A DNA stretch of 64,000 nt from Thermoanaerobaculia bacterium (GCA_036522835.1 DATDFB010000057.1:3906-67905); one strand, 5' to 3'. Positions 3,309 through 57,749 are shown, numbered from the stretch's first letter. Notes: generated by a model not told the origin, from the letters alone. Made by a program: numbers and translations.

Positions 3309-4788
3309 CCGTCACCTTCGTCACGCCGAACGGCAGCAGCATCGCGAAGTTCGGCGCGACGGCGTAGAACGGGCGGAGGTCGATCGGATTGCCGAGGAGC
3401 GCCGTGCCCGCTTTCGCACAGAGATCGCCCGTGCGGAGCATGTTCTCGATCGGGCGCTTCACGCGCATGGTCGGATAGAGCGCGTTCACCTCGTCGCGCA
3501 GGTTGCCTTGCGGCTTCTCTTTGTACTCCTTCGTGAACGACGTGACGGCGAGCTGATTGCCTTTCAGCTCCGCCTGCCAGGCCACGTGCGGCGCGCCCTC
3601 GGACGGGAAGCCGTCGTACCCGCCGTGGAAGAGAACCCCCGCCGGCGTCACCTCGGCGGCCATGTCGATGAGGTGTCCGCACGCGGCGGCGTTGACGTAT
3701 GACACATCCTGCCTGGCGATGCGATTCTGCGCGTCGTAGGTGTAGCGCGACGTGACGGCCTGCCCGTCGAGCACGAGCTCCTCGCGGTCGAGCAGCCACG
3801 CCTCGCCCGCTTTGTGCGCTCGGAAGTCGAGGAGGCCGGCGCGCTCGAGGTAGTCGGCGCCCTGCACGAGGCCCGGCCCGCTCAGGATCTCGCCGTCGTA
3901 CGTCCACCCCTCGCGCTTGCGCGCGTCCTGGATCTGCTTCTGCTTCACCGGCGTGTAGCGAAGGTCGTCGAACGGCACGCACGACAGCGTCTCGTTTCTG
4001 GCGACGCGGTCGTCGGCGTAGAACGACGTGCGCGTCGCGCCGTCGCTGCACGCGCGCGCATTCGCGTACGGCCCGTGCCAGCAGCGCGGGCACCACATCG
4101 CCCCCGTGGGGAGGCGGAGGCCGCAGAACGAGCAGACGATCTTCGTCTTCATGTCGTCGATCTCGCTCTCGAGCGCGAGGATGTGCGGCTCGATGTCCGC
4201 CTTTGACGCGGCGTCGAGGCCGGCGTAGCGGTGGAAGCGCTCCGCGGCCGTCGCCAAGTCGCCGCGCTTCTCGAAGATCACCGCCTCGTTGTAGACCGGC
4301 GCCGGGTCGTTCGGCCGCTTCTGCTCCGCGTCCTGAAAGAGCTTGAGCGCGGCGTCGTAGTCGCCCTTTTGGTAGAGGAAGCGGCCGCGCGTGAAGATCT
4401 CCGTGTACTCGTCCTCGGCCTGTTTCTTCTTCTGCAGCTCGCGCTGGAAGTCGAGCTCGAGCTGGAGCTTGGCGAGGTTCTCCTTTTCCGGTCCGGCCGG
4501 GTAGAGCTGGTTGTAGCGGTCGACTTTCTGCTGGGCCTCGGAGACGCGCCCGGCCTTGGCGAGCGTGAGGGCCATGTCGTACAGCACGCCGGCGACGTCG
4601 GGCTGCAACTGATCGGCCTTCGCGAACTGCGCGTAGGCCGCGGTGTAGTCCTTCATCGAATAGAACTTCTGGCCGAAGAAGACGGCCTTGGTGAACTCGT
4701 CCTCCGGCTGCTGCGCAAGACCGAATGCAGAATGCAGGATGCAGAATGCAGAAACGAGCAGCACCGCTCGCCATTCTGCATTTTGCAT
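3289..4788 (-). CDS. TPR-repeat protein with CxxC zinc-ribbon (MWCPRCW) and C-terminal domain; start uncertain
   Basis: Downstream part of track ORF 3289..6636. TPR units (KAVFFGQKFYSMKDYTAAYAQFAKADQLQP...); putative start MQNAEWRAVLLVSAFCILHSAFG at 4788 is encoded by repeat element 4723-4804; alternative start 4656 would truncate a TPR. Confidence 0.55.
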   Translation of the reverse strand: MQNAEWRAVLLVSAFCILHSAFGLAQQPEDEFTKAVFFGQKFYSMKDYTAAYAQFAKADQLQPDVAGVLYDMALTLAKAGRVSEAQQKVDRYNQLYPAGPEKENLAKLQLELDFQRELQKKKQAEDEYTEIFTRGRFLYQKGDYDAALKLFQDAEQKRPNDPAPVYNEAVIFEKRGDLATAAERFHRYAGLDAASKADIEPHILALESEIDDMKTKIVCSFCGLRLPTGAMWCPRCWHGPYANARACSDGATRTSFYADDRVARNETLSCVPFDDLRYTPVKQKQIQDARKREGWTYDGEILSGPGLVQGADYLERAGLLDFRAHKAGEAWLLDREELVLDGQAVTSRYTYDAQNRIARQDVSYVNAAACGHLIDMAAEVTPAGVLFHGGYDGFPSEGAPHVAWQAELKGNQLAVTSFTKEYKEKPQGNLRDEVNALYPTMRVKRPIENMLRTGDLCAKAGTALLGNPIDLRPFYAVAPNFAMLLPFGVTKVTVTTPAK

Positions 4789-4804
4789 TCTGCATTCTGC
4801 ATTC
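4723..4804. repeat. palindromic element, family 1 ((GCAGAAT)n heptamer arms), copy 1
   Basis: gaatgcagaatgcaggatgcagaatgcagaaa ...loop... ttctgcattttgcattctgcattctgcattc; diverged relative of copies at 16334-16425 and 19818-19925. Confidence 0.7.
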
Positions 4805-16309: not shown

Positions 16310-16333
16310 GGCGCGTTACGCCCGCATACCACG

Positions 16334-16425
16334 GAAACTTAGAACGCAGAATGCGAATGCAGAATGAAGAAAGCTTCGCCGGCGATTTCTCAATTCTGCA
16401 TTCGCATTCTGCGTTCTGAATTTCC
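16334..16425. repeat. palindromic element, family 1, copy 2
   Basis: gaaacttagaacgcagaatgcgaatgcagaatgaagaaa ... tctcaattctgcattcgcattctgcgttctgaatttcc; near-identical to 19818-19925. Confidence 0.8.
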
Positions 16426-16446
16426 GTGGGCCGAAAGCAGGCGAGC

Positions 16447-16707
16447 TCACATCTCCTCGAATGCCTCGTCCACCAGCATCACCGGGATGTCACTGACGAT
16501 CGGGTAGATCCGGTGGCACTTGACGCACTGCAGGCCCTGCTCGACGACGGGCTCCTCGCCGCGGAACTTCTCCCGGAACTTGTCGCGCACGGCCGCGCTC
16601 CGCTCCGCCGACAGCGGCACCATGCGCACCTCTTCCTTGCACAGCGGGCAGGCGAGGATCTCGAGCAGTTCCGTGTCGATGGCCATGGGCGGCGCGAAGT
16701 GTAGCAT
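16447..16707 (-). CDS. Trm112 family (DUF343) small protein
   Basis: LLEILACPLCKEEV...LQCVKCHRIYPIVSDIPVMLVDEA. Confidence 0.75.
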   Translation of the reverse strand: MLHFAPPMAIDTELLEILACPLCKEEVRMVPLSAERSAAVRDKFREKFRGEEPVVEQGLQCVKCHRIYPIVSDIPVMLVDEAFEEM

Positions 16708-16717
16708 TCGCGGCGCA

Positions 16718-17776
16718 ATGCGAGTCCTGCACCTCGCCGCCGGAAACCGCTGGACCGGAGCCGCCGCGCCGGCGTTCGCCGAGGTGGCGGCGCTGCGCGA
16801 GGCGGGAGTCGATGCGCACTACGCCTACGTCGGCGGCTACAAGCTCGAGCAGAAGCTCGCCCACGTCGGCTTCGCCCACCCCGCGATCGCCAAGGCGCAG
16901 AATCCGCTGTCGTTCCTGCGCACAGCCACGAGGCTCGAGCACCTCATCGACCACCACGGCTTCGACGTCGTGCACGCGCACCTCACCTACGATCACGTGC
17001 TGGCGCGGTTCATCGCCAAGCGGGAGAAGGTGCGGATCGTGCGGACGTTCCACTCCCGGCGGGTGATCCGCGGCGACGTCTTCACGCGGGCGCTCGTCCG
17101 GCGCACCGACGCGATTTGCGTGATCAACGACGCGCTCGCCGAGGCGGCGCCGATCCGCGGCCGTTTCGCGCTCTACACACCGCCGCCGCTCGACACGCGG
17201 CAATTCACGCCCGAGGGGCCGGACTTGCGCGGGGCCTACGGCGTCGAGGGCGATGCGCTGCTCCTCGTCGCCATCGGCAAGCTCGATCCCGCGCGCGGCT
17301 TCGAGGACGTGCTGCGGACGTACGCACTGGTACGGCAGGCCATCGCCACGGCGCGGCTGATGATCATCGGCCACGGCCCGCACCGCCCGGCGCTCGAAGC
17401 GCTGGCGAGCTCGCTGCAAATCGAGCCGATCTGGGCCGGTTATCACGAGGACGATCTCGCCGAGCACTACCGCGCCGCCGACGTGCTGCTCTTCACCGCG
17501 CGCGGCTCCGACGAGGGCCACCGCGCCGTGATCGAGGCGATGGGCTGCGGCGTCGTGCCGGCGACGTATCGCCTCGACGGCATGCCCGCGATCCTCGGCG
17601 AGCTCGGCGCGGAGTCGCTGGCGGCGTCGCCGGCGCCGCAGGCGCTGGCCGAGCGCGTGATCGCCATCGCCCAAGGCGATCTCGCCGCATCGCGCCGCGC
17701 GGCGTTCGCACGGTCGGCGGAGTTTTCGTACGGGAAGGCCGCGGAGCGGCTGATGAAGCTGTACGAGTCGCTCTAA
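16718..17776 (+). CDS. glycosyltransferase family 4 (GT-B)
   Basis: Start refined to MRVLHLAAGNRWTGAA; C-terminal EG.. VIEAMGCGVVPA motif region; upstream 66 residues of track ORF are antisense to Trm112 gene. Confidence 0.8.
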   Translation: MRVLHLAAGNRWTGAAAPAFAEVAALREAGVDAHYAYVGGYKLEQKLAHVGFAHPAIAKAQNPLSFLRTATRLEHLIDHHGFDVVHAHLTYDHVLARFIAKREKVRIVRTFHSRRVIRGDVFTRALVRRTDAICVINDALAEAAPIRGRFALYTPPPLDTRQFTPEGPDLRGAYGVEGDALLLVAIGKLDPARGFEDVLRTYALVRQAIATARLMIIGHGPHRPALEALASSLQIEPIWAGYHEDDLAEHYRAADVLLFTARGSDEGHRAVIEAMGCGVVPATYRLDGMPAILGELGAESLAASPAPQALAERVIAIAQGDLAASRRAAFARSAEFSYGKAAERLMKLYESL

Positions 17777-26720: not shown

Positions 26721-27841
26721 GAATCGGCATCACCTGCTACCCCACCTTCGGCGGCTCCGGCGTGGTAGCCACGGAGCTCGGCATCGCTCTGGCCAAGATG
26801 GGCGACGACGTCCACTTCATCAGCTACGCGCCGCCGTCGCGGCTCAACATCCTCCACGAGCGCGTGCGCTTCCACGAAGTCACGGTCACGCCGTATCCGC
26901 TCTTCGATCCGTTCCCGCCGTACACGCTGGCGCTGGCGACGAAGATGGCGGAGATCGCCGAGTACGAGCGCCTCGACGTGCTGCACGTGCACTACGCGAT
27001 CCCGCACGCCATCAGCGCCCACCTCGCCCGCGAGATCCTCGGCGACAAGATGCGCTTCGTCACCACCCTGCACGGCACCGACATCACCCTCGTCGGGCGC
27101 GACGCGTCGTATCTGCCGATCACGAAGTTCGGCATCGAAGTCTCCGACGGCGTCACGGCCGTGTCGCATTGGCTGCGCGACGAGACGGAGAAGAACTTCG
27201 GCACGAAGAAGGAGATCGCCGTCATCCCGAACTTCGTCGATCCGCTGCGCTTCCAGCGCCACGAGAGCGCGTTCTGCCACCTCTTCGGCGACGCCGGCGA
27301 CCGCCTCCTCTGCCACGTCTCGAACTTCCGTCCCGTGAAGCGGATCATGGACGTGCTGGCCGTCTTCGAGCGCGTGCTGCGCGTGATCCCGAGCCGCCTG
27401 GTGATGATCGGCGACGGCCCCGACCGTTCCAAGGCCGAGGCGTTCTGCCGTCAACATCATTTGAAGGACCGCGTCTTTTTCCTCGGCAATGTTCCGAATC
27501 TCGAAGAGATCGTCGGCGCCAGCGACGTGTTCCTCCTGCCCAGCGAGCACGAGTCGTTCGGCATGGCCGCGCTGGAGGCGATGGCCTCGGAAGTCCCGGT
27601 CATCGCCACGCGCGCGGGCGGACTGCCCGAGGTCGTGGTCGACGGCGAGACCGGATACCTCCTGCCGGTCGGCGACGTCGACGCCATGGCCGAGCGCGCC
27701 ATCGCCATCCTCACCGACAAGGTCCTGCAGCGCCGCCTCGGGCGCGCCGGACGCGCGCTGGCGGAGGAGCAGTTCAACGTGAACCGCGTCGTGCCGATGT
27801 ACCGCGAGTTCTATGAGAAGTTCCTGGTTCTTCGTTCTTAG
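26717..27841 (+). CDS. bshA: N-acetyl-alpha-D-glucosaminyl L-malate synthase BshA (GT4)
   Basis: GTG start overlapping bshB stop; RIGITCYPTFGGSGVVATELG ... EHESFGMAALEAMASEVPVIATRAGGLPEVV. Confidence 0.8.
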   Translation: MRIGITCYPTFGGSGVVATELGIALAKMGDDVHFISYAPPSRLNILHERVRFHEVTVTPYPLFDPFPPYTLALATKMAEIAEYERLDVLHVHYAIPHAISAHLAREILGDKMRFVTTLHGTDITLVGRDASYLPITKFGIEVSDGVTAVSHWLRDETEKNFGTKKEIAVIPNFVDPLRFQRHESAFCHLFGDAGDRLLCHVSNFRPVKRIMDVLAVFERVLRVIPSRLVMIGDGPDRSKAEAFCRQHHLKDRVFFLGNVPNLEEIVGASDVFLLPSEHESFGMAALEAMASEVPVIATRAGGLPEVVVDGETGYLLPVGDVDAMAERAIAILTDKVLQRRLGRAGRALAEEQFNVNRVVPMYREFYEKFLVLRS

Positions 27842-29892
27842 TTCTTGGTTGGTCGGGCGTAGATCTCCGCGTAGTTCTCGTACGAATTCAGCACCTTGCG
27901 CACGTAGTCCTTCGTCTCGTCGAAGCTGACGGCGGTGAGGAAGAAGTCGTCGCCGGGGCCGGCGGCGAGGCGCGACCAGAGCGCGGCCTGCTTCGGGCCG
28001 GCGTTGTAGGCGGCGGCGATCTTGTAGCGGTCGCCGCCGAGCTCTTTCGACAGCGTGGCCACGTACTTCGCGCCCAGGCGGATGACGACGCGCGGGTCGT
28101 AGAGATCGTCTTCGTCGACGTCGACGAGGCCGATGTCGCGGCCGATCTGCCGCGCCGTGGTGATGATGAGCTGCAGGAGACCTCGCGCCGCCGCCTCCGA
28201 CTTCGCGCGCGGATCGAAGCGCGACTCCTCGCGCATGATGGCGAAAAGCAGCGTCGGATCGGCGCTGTAGCTCTTCGCGTCGGCCTCGATGAAGCTCGCG
28301 AAGTAGCGCGGATAGAGCAGCTCGCGGACGACGCGCGGGAGGAGCTGCGGGACGAAGTCGTCGGGCACGCCGTTCATCACCGTCTCGATGGCGCGGATCG
28401 ACTCGTGCGAGGCATTGCCGAGGTTCAGGGCGAGCGATTGCGTGAGGCCGCTCTGCATGGGGTGCAGCGGCCAGATCTTCGGGATGTCGTCGGCCGCCTC
28501 GTCGAAGAGGCCCATGGCCATGAGCTGTTCGGCGCGCGAGGCATCGGGCGGGAGAGGGACGTGCGGGAAGGGGAGCGGCTTCAGGTCGAGGACGGCCTTG
28601 TACGGCGGCTTCTGTTGGTAGCTCGCGGCAATTTGCTTCAGGTCCGGCTGGAAATGCAGCCGCTGCCGCGCGAAGTAGGCGAAGTGCGTCGGCACGGTGG
28701 CGTGGATGACCCGGAGATAGGCCTCGCGCGACGCCTGCGGATTCGACGACTCCAGCGCGCGGCCGCGCCAGTAGTCGATCTCGTACGGATCGAATTTGTC
28801 GAGCAGGTTCCGCGGGATGGCGTTCAGCGTGACGACGCACGCGCCGGCGTTCCCCGCGCCGAGCATGCCGACGGCGTAGGCGAGCGAGGCGTCGACGAGC
28901 GCGCGGTCCTTCGGGAAGAGCTTGCGCATCGCCGCCAGATCCGCCGCCGCATCGGCAAAGCGCCGCTGCTTAAGGCGCGTGCGCAAACGCTGCGTCAACG
29001 CGGCGGCGGTCGAGGCCGTGCGCGCCGGCACGGCGATGGCCTGCGTCATGAGCTGCTCCGCGCCGGCGTCATTCCCCTGCAGTTGCGCGGCGCGCGCGGC
29101 ATGCCAGAGGAAGGTAATCTTCATTGCCGCGCTCTTCGTCTGCTGCGCGCCGCGGAGGTACGTCGCCTGCGCCTGCGCAAACTTTTCGTCGCCGTAGTAG
29201 GCGCGGCCGATCGAAAAGGTGATGTCGTCGCTCGGCGGCACGGAACCGAGCAGCGCCACGGCGCGGTCGAAGTGGCGGTGGTTGAGCATGGCCGTGCCGA
29301 GGAGAATTCTCTGTGGCGGCGTGAGCCGCGCGCGCAGCTCCGCCGTGTCGAGAGCGCGCGCGACGTGCTCCGCGGCGTCGTCCATCGTGCCGCCGGCGAG
29401 GATGGCCAGACACGCCGCGCCGTTCCGCGACGCTTCGGCGAGGCGCGCCTGAATGTCGCGTGACGGCGGAAGCCGCTGCGCGAACGCCGACAGCCGCTGC
29501 GGGTCCTTCATGAGGTATTCGACTTCGTCCTCGATGGCTTGCTGGCGATAGAACGCGTGCGGGTACTCGAAGATCAGCGTTTGCCGGTCGCGGCTCGCCG
29601 CCTCGCCGTCCTCGATCTCGGCCTTGTGGTAGAGCGCAAGGTCGCGGAAGGGATTCCCCGGCGCGAGGAACGGCGCCAGCTCTTTCGCCGCGGCAGCGCG
29701 CTCATTGCGGTCGACGAGAAGCCGGGCACGGAGGTACGAGGGCGCCGGCGCAGCCGGCAGCGCCGTCCTCTCGACACGAAAGACCCGCCGGCGCGCCACG
29801 CGCTGCCGCGCGGCGACGATCCCGAGAATGACGACGATCAGGATGAGGGCAGCAAGGGCGGAAAGGAGAAGGACGAGTCGTTTCTTCGTCAA
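27838..29892 (-). CDS. lytic transglycosylase (Slt family) domain protein
   Basis: N-terminal TM, superhelical domain, SLT motif AIMREESRFDPRAKSEAAARGLLQLI ... AYNAGP. Confidence 0.85.
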   Translation of the reverse strand: MTKKRLVLLLSALAALILIVVILGIVAARQRVARRRVFRVERTALPAAPAPSYLRARLLVDRNERAAAAKELAPFLAPGNPFRDLALYHKAEIEDGEAASRDRQTLIFEYPHAFYRQQAIEDEVEYLMKDPQRLSAFAQRLPPSRDIQARLAEASRNGAACLAILAGGTMDDAAEHVARALDTAELRARLTPPQRILLGTAMLNHRHFDRAVALLGSVPPSDDITFSIGRAYYGDEKFAQAQATYLRGAQQTKSAAMKITFLWHAARAAQLQGNDAGAEQLMTQAIAVPARTASTAAALTQRLRTRLKQRRFADAAADLAAMRKLFPKDRALVDASLAYAVGMLGAGNAGACVVTLNAIPRNLLDKFDPYEIDYWRGRALESSNPQASREAYLRVIHATVPTHFAYFARQRLHFQPDLKQIAASYQQKPPYKAVLDLKPLPFPHVPLPPDASRAEQLMAMGLFDEAADDIPKIWPLHPMQSGLTQSLALNLGNASHESIRAIETVMNGVPDDFVPQLLPRVVRELLYPRYFASFIEADAKSYSADPTLLFAIMREESRFDPRAKSEAAARGLLQLIITTARQIGRDIGLVDVDEDDLYDPRVVIRLGAKYVATLSKELGGDRYKIAAAYNAGPKQAALWSRLAAGPGDDFFLTAVSFDETKDYVRKVLNSYENYAEIYARPTKN

Positions 29893-30363: not shown

Positions 30364-30439
30364 GGTTCTTAGTTCTTAGTTCTTGGTTCTTAAGTTTTGC
30401 CGAAACCCAAGAACCTAACAACATAAGAACCTAAGAACC
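30364..30439. repeat. inverted repeat built from tandem GTTCTTAG/GTTCTTGG octamers
   Basis: ggttcttagttcttagttcttggttcttaagtt-ttgccgaa-acccaagaacctaacaacataagaacctaagaacc in divergent promoter region of proS; motif shared with 27826-27852 and flanks of 56436-56715. Confidence 0.6.
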
Positions 30440-56067: not shown

Positions 56068-56373
56068 ATGGCAGGAAAAGGTGACGTCATCAACGAGATC
56101 GCCGACCAGGCTGGGATCTCGAAGAAGGAAGCGGCCGCAGCGTTCGACGCATTCGTCAGCTACATCTCCGGCTCGTGCCAGCGAGGCGAGCGCTGCTCGA
56201 TCCCAGGGCTCGGCAGCTTCTCCGTCTCGCAGCGCAAGGCGCGCGAGGGCCGCAACCCCCGCACGAACGAAAAGATCACCATCCCGGCATCGAAGAACGT
56301 CCGCTTCAAGGCCGGCAAGGACCTCAAGGACGCCGTAAACGTTTCCGGTAAGCGGGGGTCGAAGAAGAAGTAG
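56068..56373 (+). CDS. HU family nucleoid-associated DNA-binding protein
   Basis: GLGSFSVSQRKAREGRNPRTNEKITIPASKNVRFKAGKDLK + Lys-rich tail. Confidence 0.85.
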   Translation: MAGKGDVINEIADQAGISKKEAAAAFDAFVSYISGSCQRGERCSIPGLGSFSVSQRKAREGRNPRTNEKITIPASKNVRFKAGKDLKDAVNVSGKRGSKKK

Positions 56374-56404
56374 CCCGTCACCTGCCAGAAGCCTGCGATG
56401 AACG

Positions 56405-56431
56405 AGCGCTCCGGGAAGCCGGAGCGTTTTT
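56405..56431 (+). terminator. rho-independent terminator after HU gene
   Basis: gagcgctccgg-gaag-ccggagcg followed by TTTTT. Confidence 0.6.
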
Positions 56432-56435
56432 CGTT

Positions 56436-56715
56436 TAAGTTGTTAGGTTCGCAGGTTGTTACGTTCTTCACCGATCGAAGAGCGCACGCTTCCGATCGAA
56501 GAACGAACGCTTCAATCGGAATCGTGCGCTCTTCGATTTTAATCGTACGCTCTTCGATCTTTATCGCGCGCTCTTCGATCTTTATCGCGCGCTCTTCGAT
56601 CGGAATCGCGCGCTCTTCGATCGGAATGGCGCACTCTTCGATCGGAATCGTGCGTTCTTCGGTTGCAAGCGTGCGTTCTTCGAAAACAACCTAAGAACTC
56701 AACAACTTAACAACC
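56436..56715. repeat. composite element: ~30-bp terminal inverted repeats flanking two inverted + eight direct 21-bp repeats (CGCGCTCTTCGATCNNAATCG)
   Basis: Direct units at 56525, 56546, 56567, 56588, 56609, 56630, 56651, 56672; inverted units at 56471 and 56489; every unit has TTCGATC. TIRs ttaagttgttaggttcgcaggttgtt / aacaacctaagaactcaacaacttaa. Confidence 0.8.
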
Positions 56716-56723
56716 GGATCACC

Positions 56724-57749
56724 TCAAACCCACGCCCGCGGTACGAACAACGTCTCATACAACTTGATCGCGTACCGATCCGTCATCCCGGCCACGAAGT
56801 CGATGGCCAGCCGCTCGGTCGTCTCTTCGCTGTTCACCGGCAGGTACTCCTCGGGGTGGGCGACGACGTACTCGAAGAGCGCGGTGACGATGCGCTTCGC
56901 TTTTTCCAATTCGTCGCGCACGGCGGGGATGAGGTACATGTGCTCGAACATGTAGCGGCGTAGCTCTTCGAGCGCCTCCAGCACCTCGGCCGACATGCGG
57001 ATCGCCTCGTAGCCGCAGGCGAGCGTCTGGGCGACGACGTCGCGCACCATGCGGTCGATGCGCTGGCTGCCGGTGGGGCCGAGCGTGTCGCGGATCGCCT
57101 TCGGGATGTCGTCCTCGGTCAAGAGGCCGGCGCGGATGCCGTCGTCGATGTCGTGGTTCACGTAGGCGACGATGTCGGAGATGCGCACGATGTCGCCCTC
57201 GAGCGTGAGCGCCCGGGAGCGCGGCCGCGAGCGCAGCAACTCTCCCTTCTCGCCCTTCGAATGTTTGAGGATGCCGTCGCGCACTTCGATCGTGAGGTTG
57301 AGGCCGCGGCCGTCGTTCTCCAGCACCTCCACGACGCGCACCGACTGCCGGTAGTGATCGAAGCCGCCGCGCACGAGCTTATTGAGCGCCGCCTCGCCGG
57401 CGTGCCCGAACGCGGAGTGCCCGAGGTCGTGGCCGAGACCGATGGCCTCGGTGAGCACTTCGTTGAGGCGCAGCGACTTCGCGATCGTGCGCGCGATCTG
57501 CGTCACCTCCAGCACGTGCGTCAGGCGCGTGCGGTAGTGGTCGCCCTCGGGTGCGAGGAACACCTGCGTCTTGTGCTTGAGGCGCCGGAAGGCCTTGCAG
57601 TGAATGATGCGGTCGCGGTCGCGCTGGTAGGAGGGGCGGAGGTCGTCCTCCGGCTCGGCGCGGTCGCGGCCGCGCGTGCCGGCGCTCTTCGCGGCGCGCG
57701 GGTGAAACGTCTCGGCTTCGATTTGCTCGAGGGTCTCGCGGATCGTCAC
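56724..57749 (-). CDS. dgt: dGTP triphosphohydrolase-like HD-domain protein
   Basis: HCKAFRRLKHKTQVF...HVLEVTQIARTIA...LGHDLGHSAFGHAGE. Confidence 0.85.
   Translation of the reverse strand: MTIRETLEQIEAETFHPRAAKSAGTRGRDRAEPEDDLRPSYQRDRDRIIHCKAFRRLKHKTQVFLAPEGDHYRTRLTHVLEVTQIARTIAKSLRLNEVLTEAIGLGHDLGHSAFGHAGEAALNKLVRGGFDHYRQSVRVVEVLENDGRGLNLTIEVRDGILKHSKGEKGELLRSRPRSRALTLEGDIVRISDIVAYVNHDIDDGIRAGLLTEDDIPKAIRDTLGPTGSQRIDRMVRDVVAQTLACGYEAIRMSAEVLEALEELRRYMFEHMYLIPAVRDELEKAKRIVTALFEYVVAHPEEYLPVNSEETTERLAIDFVAGMTDRYAIKLYETLFVPRAWV

Follow-up and report, generated by a model that had tools for sequence, protein, structure and literature searches.

The repeat block and its neighbours

The window analysed here is a stretch of 64,000 nt (64 kb) from Thermoanaerobaculia bacterium (GCA_036522835.1, DATDFB010000057.1:3906-67905), and the element under study is a 280-bp block of repeats at 56435-56714 of that window. 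Two genes converge on it: the gene for the nucleoid protein HU (plus strand, 56068-56373, PF00216) and dgt, which encodes a dGTPase with HD and HD_assoc domains (minus strand, 56724-57749). An earlier reading of the sequence alone (the original prediction) had described a non-coding block with 21-bp repeats at this site, and both Tandem Repeats Finder (TRF) and gene calls confirmed that the block is real. Its left boundary is the intrinsic terminator of the HU gene (plus strand, 56404-56436), which was located by a terminator scan and consists of a stem at 56404-56429 with 11 pairs, seven of them G-C, followed by a T run. This terminator lies just outside the repeat block and is no part of the element, which sits exactly between the terminator and the dgt stop codon (56724-56726), 9 nt from the latter.

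The block is bounded by two outer arms that were detected as inverted-repeat pairs and as a direct-repeat family. The left arm (56435-56470) is composed of the low-GC tandem 8-mers GTTGTTAG GTTCGCAG GTTGTTAC GTTCTTCA, and the right arm (56685-56714) of the tandem 8-mers AACAACCT AAGAACTC AACAACTT followed by AACAAC (TRF period 8, 3.8 copies); the right-arm 8-mers are the reverse-complement strand of 8-mers of the left-arm type. Over 26 nt (56435-56460 against 56685-56710) the arms are 85% complementary, and a 30-nt version of the pairing reaches 70%. The imperfect terminal inverted repeats of ~30 bp that had been proposed are thus upheld as complementary arms, but they are not plain repeats, being built of short tandem 8-mers. 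Both termini of the block read TTAA as part of the palindrome, and the only low-GC stretches near the array are the 30-nt arms.

Between the arms lie eight direct 21-bp units (plus strand, 56510-56683; consensus CTTCGATCGGAATCGCGCGCT), defined by TRF and by a pairwise unit matrix. TRF reports this direct array with period 21, 8.3 copies, 84% matches and a score of 187. The units abut head to tail with a start-to-start spacing of exactly 21 bp, and the self-identity of the array is 0.85 at a 21-bp shift, as compared to at most 0.35 at all shifts that are not multiples of 21. Because no spacers separate the units, the array is not a CRISPR, as had been stated. To the left of the direct units, positions 56471-56512 hold inverted copies (minus strand), for which TRF gives 2.0 copies of the reverse-complement unit, at period 21, over 56471-56513. 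The predicted count of eight direct units was correct, while the two inverted units resolve into one full unit (19/21 to the consensus) with a partial unit on each side. The inverted units pair with direct units at up to 93% complementarity, and the ends of the interior are inverted copies of the unit (one pair, 60 nt, 75%).

The units differ in how closely they follow the consensus. Direct units 3 and 4 are exactly alike, unit 5 equals the consensus and differs from units 3 and 4 at three adjacent bases only, and the most diverged are the edge unit 8 (15/21) and unit 2 (16/21). The heptamer TTCGATC, said to be contained in each unit, is exact in seven of the ten (direct units 3-7 and both inverted units); units 1, 2 and 8 read TTCAATC, TTCGATT and TTCGGTT instead. 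Each unit also holds the near-palindromic cores TTCGATCGGAA and GCGCGC. Clustering of GATC sites of the Dam/SeqA-like kind was considered and rejected: the seven sites in the array are unremarkable because GATC is common throughout the window (8.9 per kb).

The array is base-for-base identical in two independent soil-metagenome assemblies, each of which is 99.97% identical to the window. Contig names (k127_, k141_) suggest that these were assembled with k=127 and k=141, and the longest exact repeat inside the array is 33 nt. An assembly artefact is unlikely, since the array is unchanged in two independent assemblies and its longest exact repeat is shorter than either k.

The array occupies the place of a hairpin loop

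The closest homologues of the dGTPase come from soil metagenomes and from metagenome-assembled genomes (MAGs) that bear the NCBI name Thermoanaerobaculia, a class of the Acidobacteriota. The slot that was compared among them runs from the dgt stop codon to the HU terminator, and the relatives examined have 84-92% dGTPase identity. None of them carries a 21-bp array at the slot. The HU terminator hairpin is kept in L126, L128, L129, L124, L211, L212 and L213, and what lies between it and dgt differs from lineage to lineage. At 84-85% identity (L126 and L213-216), the slot measures 64 nt and contains the terminator only (L126 11027-11090). L128 (1203-1290, 91%) has a plain hairpin, with five copies of GTTCTTA and five of GAACTAA around a loop of about 13-18 nt. 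In L129 (3475-3555, 91%) the hairpin is built on another heptamer, GTTAGCG, and in L211 (1577-1680, 86%) it has 8-mer arms, GAGTTGTC/GAGTTGCA. In each of the GTTCTTA, GTTAGCG and GAGTTGTC hairpins, every copy, in one arm as in the other, is of the version particular to that lineage, which implies concerted change or repeated replacement.

In some lineages, the dgt-HU gap is instead an insertion hotspot for whole genes. An inserted gene is present in L123 (4027-5940), L124 (4063-5112) and L127 (2012-2137), all at 90-92% identity, and L212 (1256-1780, 85%) has an acetyltransferase gene in the slot. The L124 gene encodes a secreted-looking protein with the Pfam domain CLIPPER, which is on record for L124 only. 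The starts of the L123 and L127 slot genes look alike, and no Pfam match is on record for these two.

By blastn, L128 up to position 1237 matches the window from 56683 upwards, and L128 from 1256 onwards matches the window from 56468 downwards. Both arms of the L128 hairpin therefore align to the arms of the window element, its downstream arm to the left arm of the element and its upstream arm to the right one, and window positions 56469-56682 stand opposite L128 1238-1255. Because the alignments stop at 56683 and 56468, the 214-nt interior (56469-56682), which comprises the whole 21-bp array, fills the site that the 18-nt loop takes up in L128. When the slot was aligned with MAFFT, the gap was shifted to one side, and the result told less than the blastn coordinates did. 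By this comparison, the outer hairpin predates the split between the L128 and window lineages, and the array is younger.

A family of hairpins with tandem-repeat arms

The window has a G+C content of 67%, and several low-GC intergenic hairpins armed by complementary runs of tandem 7/8-nt units are set within it, at least five of them in the 64 kb. The usual form of the element is represented by a sister hairpin at 30364-30439, in which four copies of GTTCTTA (7-nt units at 30365-30392) are paired with 4.5 copies of AACCTAAG around a short loop, with a predicted RNA fold of -33.9 kcal/mol (z = -6.6). The arm motif GTTGTTAGGTTC of the studied element occurs exactly at 30411-30422, and a half array of AGTTCTT heptamers without a partner arm lies at 27819-27850; the original prediction had correctly placed further occurrences of the arm motif at 30364-30439 and 27826-27852. 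The final codons and the TAG stop of a plus-strand gene ending at 27841 lie within the half array, which also overlaps the end of a convergent gene at 27838-29892.

Other hairpins of the window use unrelated units. A near-perfect hairpin at 4723-4804 is built from 4.4 copies of GAATGCA and 4.7 of CATTCTG (-63.6 kcal/mol, z = -10.7); the right arm extends as far as the stop codon of a minus-strand gene that ends at 4803. Two copies of a ~100-nt palindrome of the AGAATGC type lie at 16322-16436 and 19806-19936, with the hairpins themselves listed at 16333-16425 and 19815-19945. Their ~44-nt arms (CCACGGAAA-TTAGAACGCAGAATGCGAATGCAGAATGAAGAAA and complement) are near-identical, with one mismatch, and their loops differ, at 13 versus 29 nt. 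This pair shows that the genome contains a dispersed family resembling REPINs or MITEs (transposable elements of the miniature inverted-repeat kind), in which the arms are the dispersed part and the loop the variable part, since the copies share the former and differ in the latter. Hairpins of the window fold far better than shuffled controls (z from -6.6 to -12.4) and occur between convergent, tandem and divergent genes alike. With a deliberately strict detector, eight hairpins were counted in 210 kb of Acidobacteriota DNA as compared to four in 779 kb from other taxa, a per-base frequency ~7x higher in the Acidobacteriota loci.

Occurrence of the 21-bp unit

While the arm motif recurs in the window, the 21-mer does not: a search for further copies, proposed genome-wide in the original prediction and covering here the 64 kb, found the unit core only inside the array. 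A one-unit pattern matched 49 contigs in JGI metagenomes and 32 viral contigs in IMG/VR, all of them single chance matches and none an array; all 81 matches lie in GC-rich, coding-like DNA, with an identity at a 21-bp shift of at most 0.40. No match to the block was found by blastn against plasmids and phages, and a six-frame search of 5.8 billion proteins recovered no open reading frames (ORFs) derived from the array, only unrelated Clostridium coiled-coil proteins. A scan of genome collections with TCTTCGAT repeated three times at 21-bp spacing used a pattern that was too permissive; among the matches listed, coding repeats of 7 residues from unrelated taxa made up the majority, and the source genome did not appear. 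One Thermoanaerobaculia unit, CTTCGATGCGTAGCGAACGAT, was tried as a homologue and rejected, because eight of its 14/21 matches were forced by the search and the rest are not above chance.

Arrays of 21 bp at other loci in Acidobacteriota

The same genome-collection scan led to other 21-bp arrays within the phylum. Two of these, at L013 3360-3720 and L030 5577-5790, belong to the Acidobacteriota MAG MFD02840.bin.1.7, on one 580-kb contig, and consist of ~15 and ~9 copies of the unit GGTTCTGGGGTCTTCGATCGA. As read from the sequence, both start right after the stop codon of the upstream ORF, and GTTCT-type heptamers (GTTCTGA/GGTTCTG) adjoin them; the L030 array ends in a partial inverted unit. 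Their identity at 7- and 14-bp shifts is 0.47-0.55, as compared to a background of 0.25, and this clear 7-/14-nt sub-periodicity demonstrates them to be higher-order repeats of heptamers. A second unit, CTTCGATGCGYAGCGAACGAT, forms arrays of 7-15 copies at L036 5878-6117, L070 1-157 and L093 1560-1804 (MAG Chersky.31_28) and at L101 176-482 (MAG SMAG_U12840), and is found at no fewer than three loci of one Thermoanaerobaculia MAG. The flanks of L070 and L101 are 83% identical, so the same locus keeps its array in two species-level genomes. The L093 array appears, from its sequence, to lie ~100 bp upstream of a candidate cheR-type methyltransferase gene. No convincing ORF spans any of the arrays in L036, L070, L093, L101, L013 or L030.

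These arrays share the phylum, the 21-bp period and the number of units (7-15) with the window's array. They differ from it in unit sequence, with a similarity not above chance, and in being present at two or three loci per genome at least, whereas the window's unit is known from one locus. By analogy with them, a 21-bp period may stem from slippage by three heptamers at a time (3 x 7), which would be a simpler source than helical phasing. The window's own unit was also examined as a set of three related heptamers, and this was rejected, its identity at 7/14-bp shifts being 0.28 against a background of 0.24. Since the unit keeps no 7-nt residue, L013 and L030 serve as precedent for a 3 x 7 origin and not as proof of one here.

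A 63-bp period, corresponding to three 21-bp units, slightly outscores the 21-bp period in TRF both in the window array (56510-56683; 208 versus 187) and in L036 (5879-6121; 326 versus 294), which hints at a further level of higher-order repetition in these two arrays.

Proposed origin of the array

We consider it fairly probable (about 0.65) that the block is a lineage-specific outgrowth of a common kind of hairpin, namely a minisatellite derived from the loop and expanded on one arm by slippage. In such a scenario, Thermoanaerobaculia genomes would contain numerous low-GC hairpins between genes, each with two complementary arms of four to five tandem 7/8-nt units. One hairpin of that class would have been resident between the dgt stop and the HU terminator, and its loop would have become a 21-bp minisatellite in the present lineage. 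The interior of the ancestor was most likely symmetric, with approximately two units per arm; one arm would then have gained about six units via slipped-strand mispairing during replication, a process that hairpins favour. The outcome would be the observed two inverted and eight direct units, a compound imperfect palindrome of local and recent origin. The geometry of the block agrees with this sequence of events, as the outer arms have their symmetry axis at 56572.5 and the inner palindrome has its own at 56505.5, an offset of 67 nt that is close to the 63 nt expected from six 21-bp units added to one arm. Slipped-strand duplication, which usually leaves a pattern of this kind, is likewise suggested by the central units being identical or nearly so while the edge unit 8 is the most diverged.

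Several observations weigh against this origin. No intermediate was found, such as a hairpin whose loop holds one or two units of 21 bp, and the nearest relatives with data are already ~8-9% diverged in the dGTPase protein. Copy number, whose variation among strains the original prediction had proposed to test, is identical in three assemblies, where some variation might be expected of a highly unstable minisatellite, although all three represent essentially one strain. The short palindromes CGATCG and GCGCGC in each unit, phased at two helical turns, give the array the look of a set of binding sites, and the unit shows no residual 7-nt periodicity (0.28 versus 0.24). Finally, the uniqueness of the unit covers 64 kb of the source genome, elsewhere in which further arrays of the unit could lie.

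The expanded interior could in principle have arrived rather than grown. On this account, either the interior or the whole 280-bp block would be a nested MITE- or REPIN-like mobile unit that inserted into the loop of a resident hairpin. The terminal inverted repeats, the TTAA at both block ends and the interior that begins and ends with inverted unit copies (60 nt, 75%) are features that such an element might have, and hairpin families are indeed dispersed in the window, with near-identical arms at 16.3 and 19.8 kb and the element's arm motif shared with 30.4 kb. We nevertheless regard an insertion as unlikely. For neither the interior nor the unit did the window, JGI metagenomes, IMG/VR, plasmids or phages yield a second copy; the outer arms did not arrive anew but are orthologous to the hairpin resident in L128; and beside the interior there is neither a remnant of a split loop nor a clear target duplication, with TTAA being part of the palindrome. 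The graded divergence of the units also fits duplication in situ and not insertion.

A more speculative and improbable extension is that the element belongs to an undescribed class of intergenic palindromes of tandem 7/8-nt units in Acidobacteriota, and Thermoanaerobaculia above all, which can mature into 21-bp arrays and are made or kept by a dedicated activity. In this class the copies and the two arms would change in concert, as with the GTTCTTA, GTTAGCG and GAGTTGTC versions of the one slot. The activity might be a hairpin-specific nuclease or transposase, repair through template switching, or a protein by which the phased units are read. If this were true, the element would be an intermediate caught in the act and not a neutral accident.

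Folding and possible effects on the dgt transcript

Under the slippage origin, the element would have no sequence-specific role as an iteron or centromere, and the array itself would be close to neutral. Any effect would be structural, through a stem-loop in the 3' untranslated end of the dgt transcript, and, as DNA lying between convergent genes, the element would in addition be liable to form cruciforms or slipped structures. Folded as RNA, the dgt-sense strand is predicted to form a nested stem-loop of -128 kcal/mol (z = -7.9); the plus strand folded as DNA gives -71.8 kcal/mol (z = -5.95). No recognisable intrinsic terminator belonging to dgt itself was found, the only T run being on the hairpin in the HU direction, and on the dgt strand the stem lacks a following U tract. 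For these reasons, transcription would probably continue into the element, and the dgt transcript would end with the stem-loop, which could hinder the progress of exonucleases or RNA polymerase. Such a structural effect would be dispensable, and eight units would not be needed for it, because relatives manage with a 64-nt spacer. Membership of the units in a known non-coding RNA family had been named as a finding that would refute the original prediction; within the window, none of the Rfam families attains its gathering score, and the sole sub-threshold match in a permissive local scan is a spurious 5.8S (13.6 bits, E = 0.25).

A stronger version of this idea, compatible with the proposed origin but claiming a function, is that the stem-loop has been selected as an RNA structure that terminates dgt transcripts, makes them more stable or prevents read-through into HU antisense. 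The stability of the RNA fold, the start of the element 9 nt after the stop of a gene without a recognisable terminator, and the repeated presence of a hairpin in the dgt-HU slot of different lineages speak for selection. Yet relatives with the 64-nt spacer do without such a hairpin, and similar hairpins lie between divergent genes (16.3 kb and 30.4 kb), so that hairpins of this kind are not specifically 3'-end devices. The stem is not followed by a U tract, mismatches in the arms (85%) are uncompensated, and nothing demands eight units in place of a short loop. We regard selection for the RNA structure as unlikely.

Resemblance to protein-binding arrays

The original prediction had likened the array to iterons, partition centromeres or high-affinity sites of a nucleoid protein, for which the neighbouring HU would be a candidate; in this reading, the ten phased units would be cooperative sites for a dimeric DNA-binding protein. 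The likeness to iterons and to parC/parS arrays lies in units of ~20 bp in 8-10 copies, both direct and inverted, and a spacing of two helical turns that puts all units on one face of the helix. The mixture of direct and inverted units may resemble parC-type centromeres in particular, each unit holds near-palindromic cores, HU is encoded next door to the array, and the array of a different unit shared by L070 and L101 is kept at the same locus in two species-level genomes.

Other evidence goes against this interpretation, which we judge to be quite unlikely. The array is missing at the orthologous site in all relatives examined, and near relatives with the same gene order cannot lack an origin or a centromere. 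The nearby ParB- or Rep-like gene that had been suggested as a check was not found: the Pfam listing of the ~13-kb neighbourhood contains no Rep, parA/B or parM/R-like gene, its members being Ala racemase, SDR, Urate_ox_N, PhzF, a methyltransferase, an acetyltransferase, GH44, dgt, HU, GH15, RsmB, Fmt and TPR. No DnaA box (TTATCCACA, at most one mismatch) is present in the 64-kb window, and there is no unwinding element. The context is one of chromosomal housekeeping genes, the unit motif is not used as a single site elsewhere in the window, and the block has no plasmid or phage similarity. As for HU, this protein binds without sequence specificity, and its gene adjoins dgt also in array-less relatives. 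Striking as its iteron- or centromere-like look is, the block should be annotated neither as an origin nor as a partition site or a gene, being in all probability a lineage-specific outgrowth of a common hairpin. A replication origin or terminus at this site was rejected likewise, given that no DnaA box is present and relatives have a 64-bp spacer here; the minimum of the cumulative GC skew near 54-58 kb coincides with a change of gene strand.

Coding potential

The possibility that the array encodes a repetitive protein arises because 21 bp equal seven codons. An ORF at 56398-56694 (98 aa, with IVRSSIF-type heptads) traverses the block, the TTT/GGA variation between units falls on one codon of this plus-strand ORF, and for the open antisense frame (IEERAIK repeats) a similarity to Clostridium coiled-coil proteins with heptads is seen at an E value of about 1e-7. 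All the same, a real protein from either frame is most improbable. The ORF at 56398-56694 has no Pfam match, its ATG lies inside the stem of the HU terminator, and it does not exist in the array-less relatives, in agreement with the original prediction that it is no gene; gene callers called nothing there in L001 or L002. The openness of a frame is also uninformative in this array, because most of the six frames are open across it: the minus frame that continues the dgt frame is open throughout and other frames are open over most of it. On the antisense strand, no start codon occurs between the TAG at 56691-56693 and position 56471, and the Clostridium matches are unrelated, genuine proteins. 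Translational read-through from dgt was considered and rejected too; although dgt and the array are in one frame, another stop (TAG, 56691-56693) lies in between and no start codon follows.

Relation to known bacterial repeats

The nearest published parallel is the set of paired heptameric repeats of Xanthomonas, and the heptanucleotide repeats of cyanobacteria are similar (PMC4692102; PMC4679880). In Xanthomonas, with its GGGAATC repeats, each genome has 70-75 cases of opposite-strand, paired heptamer arrays that are able to form a stem-loop; the same genes flank these paired repeats in related species, while their length and sequence vary widely (PMC4692102). Among the 5-11-nt repeats of many bacteria, heptamers are the commonest class, and a proposed cause is polymerase slippage (PMC4679880). 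Intergenic tandem units of 7 nt link the hairpins described here to such paired heptameric simple sequence repeats (SSRs), which include those of Xanthomonas, the STRR of Calothrix/Nostoc and TAACTGA of the Beggiatoaceae. The likeness to Xanthomonas-type SSR hairpins extends to convergent, intergenic stem-loop arrays that keep the same gene context with variable length and sequence, as seen in L128, L129 and L211. The arms in the window differ in being low-GC and not G-rich and in using several unrelated units within one genome (GAATGCA, GTTCTTA/GTTGTTAG); moreover, the arms of the studied element have an 8-nt period, and units of 7 nt are found in the L128 hairpin and in the sister hairpin at 30365-30392. 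A 21-bp minisatellite filling the loop of a hairpin is not described in PMC4692102 or PMC4679880. In these terms, the element is an SSR-armed hairpin whose loop grew into a minisatellite.

Comparison with other repeat classes is less close. REP, BIME and REPIN sequences are described in PMC3733652 and PMC3116915 as dispersed, short, imperfect intergenic palindromes that sometimes form tandem mosaics of alternating orientation, with proposed effects on mRNA stability, termination and supercoiling. The position and palindromy of the studied element are similar to those of these proteobacterial repeats. However, the GTAG/CGTC tag is absent here, as the arms start with TTAAGTTG... and end with ...CAACTTAA; the arms are themselves tandem repeats, and the 21-bp unit is no REP-like palindrome. 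As regards MITEs, terminal inverted repeats are present, with the TTAA at both ends belonging to the palindrome; neither the window nor the collections searched yielded the interior a second time, and only the arm motif recurs. With minisatellites, or variable number tandem repeats, the array has in common its head-to-tail, non-coding units in the 10-100-bp range, its central units that are alike and its degenerate edges, as well as its presence in one lineage only. It differs in showing no copy-number polymorphism in three near-identical assemblies and in being embedded in a palindrome with inverted units.

More widely, the element belongs to an uncultured soil class with dense repeat-armed hairpins that turn over at fixed slots between conserved genes, at least some of which become 21-bp arrays. 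Thermoanaerobaculia genomes therefore constitute a natural system in which to study the origin, homogenisation and expansion of simple repeats and palindromes in bacteria, and they call for caution with gene callers and with repeat-based annotation in MAGs. ARAGORN reports a 94-nt tRNA-Cys(GCA) at 17605-17698, its sole tRNA call in the 64 kb, and the length of this call and its position inside the predicted ORF at 16520-17776 suggest that it is a false positive.

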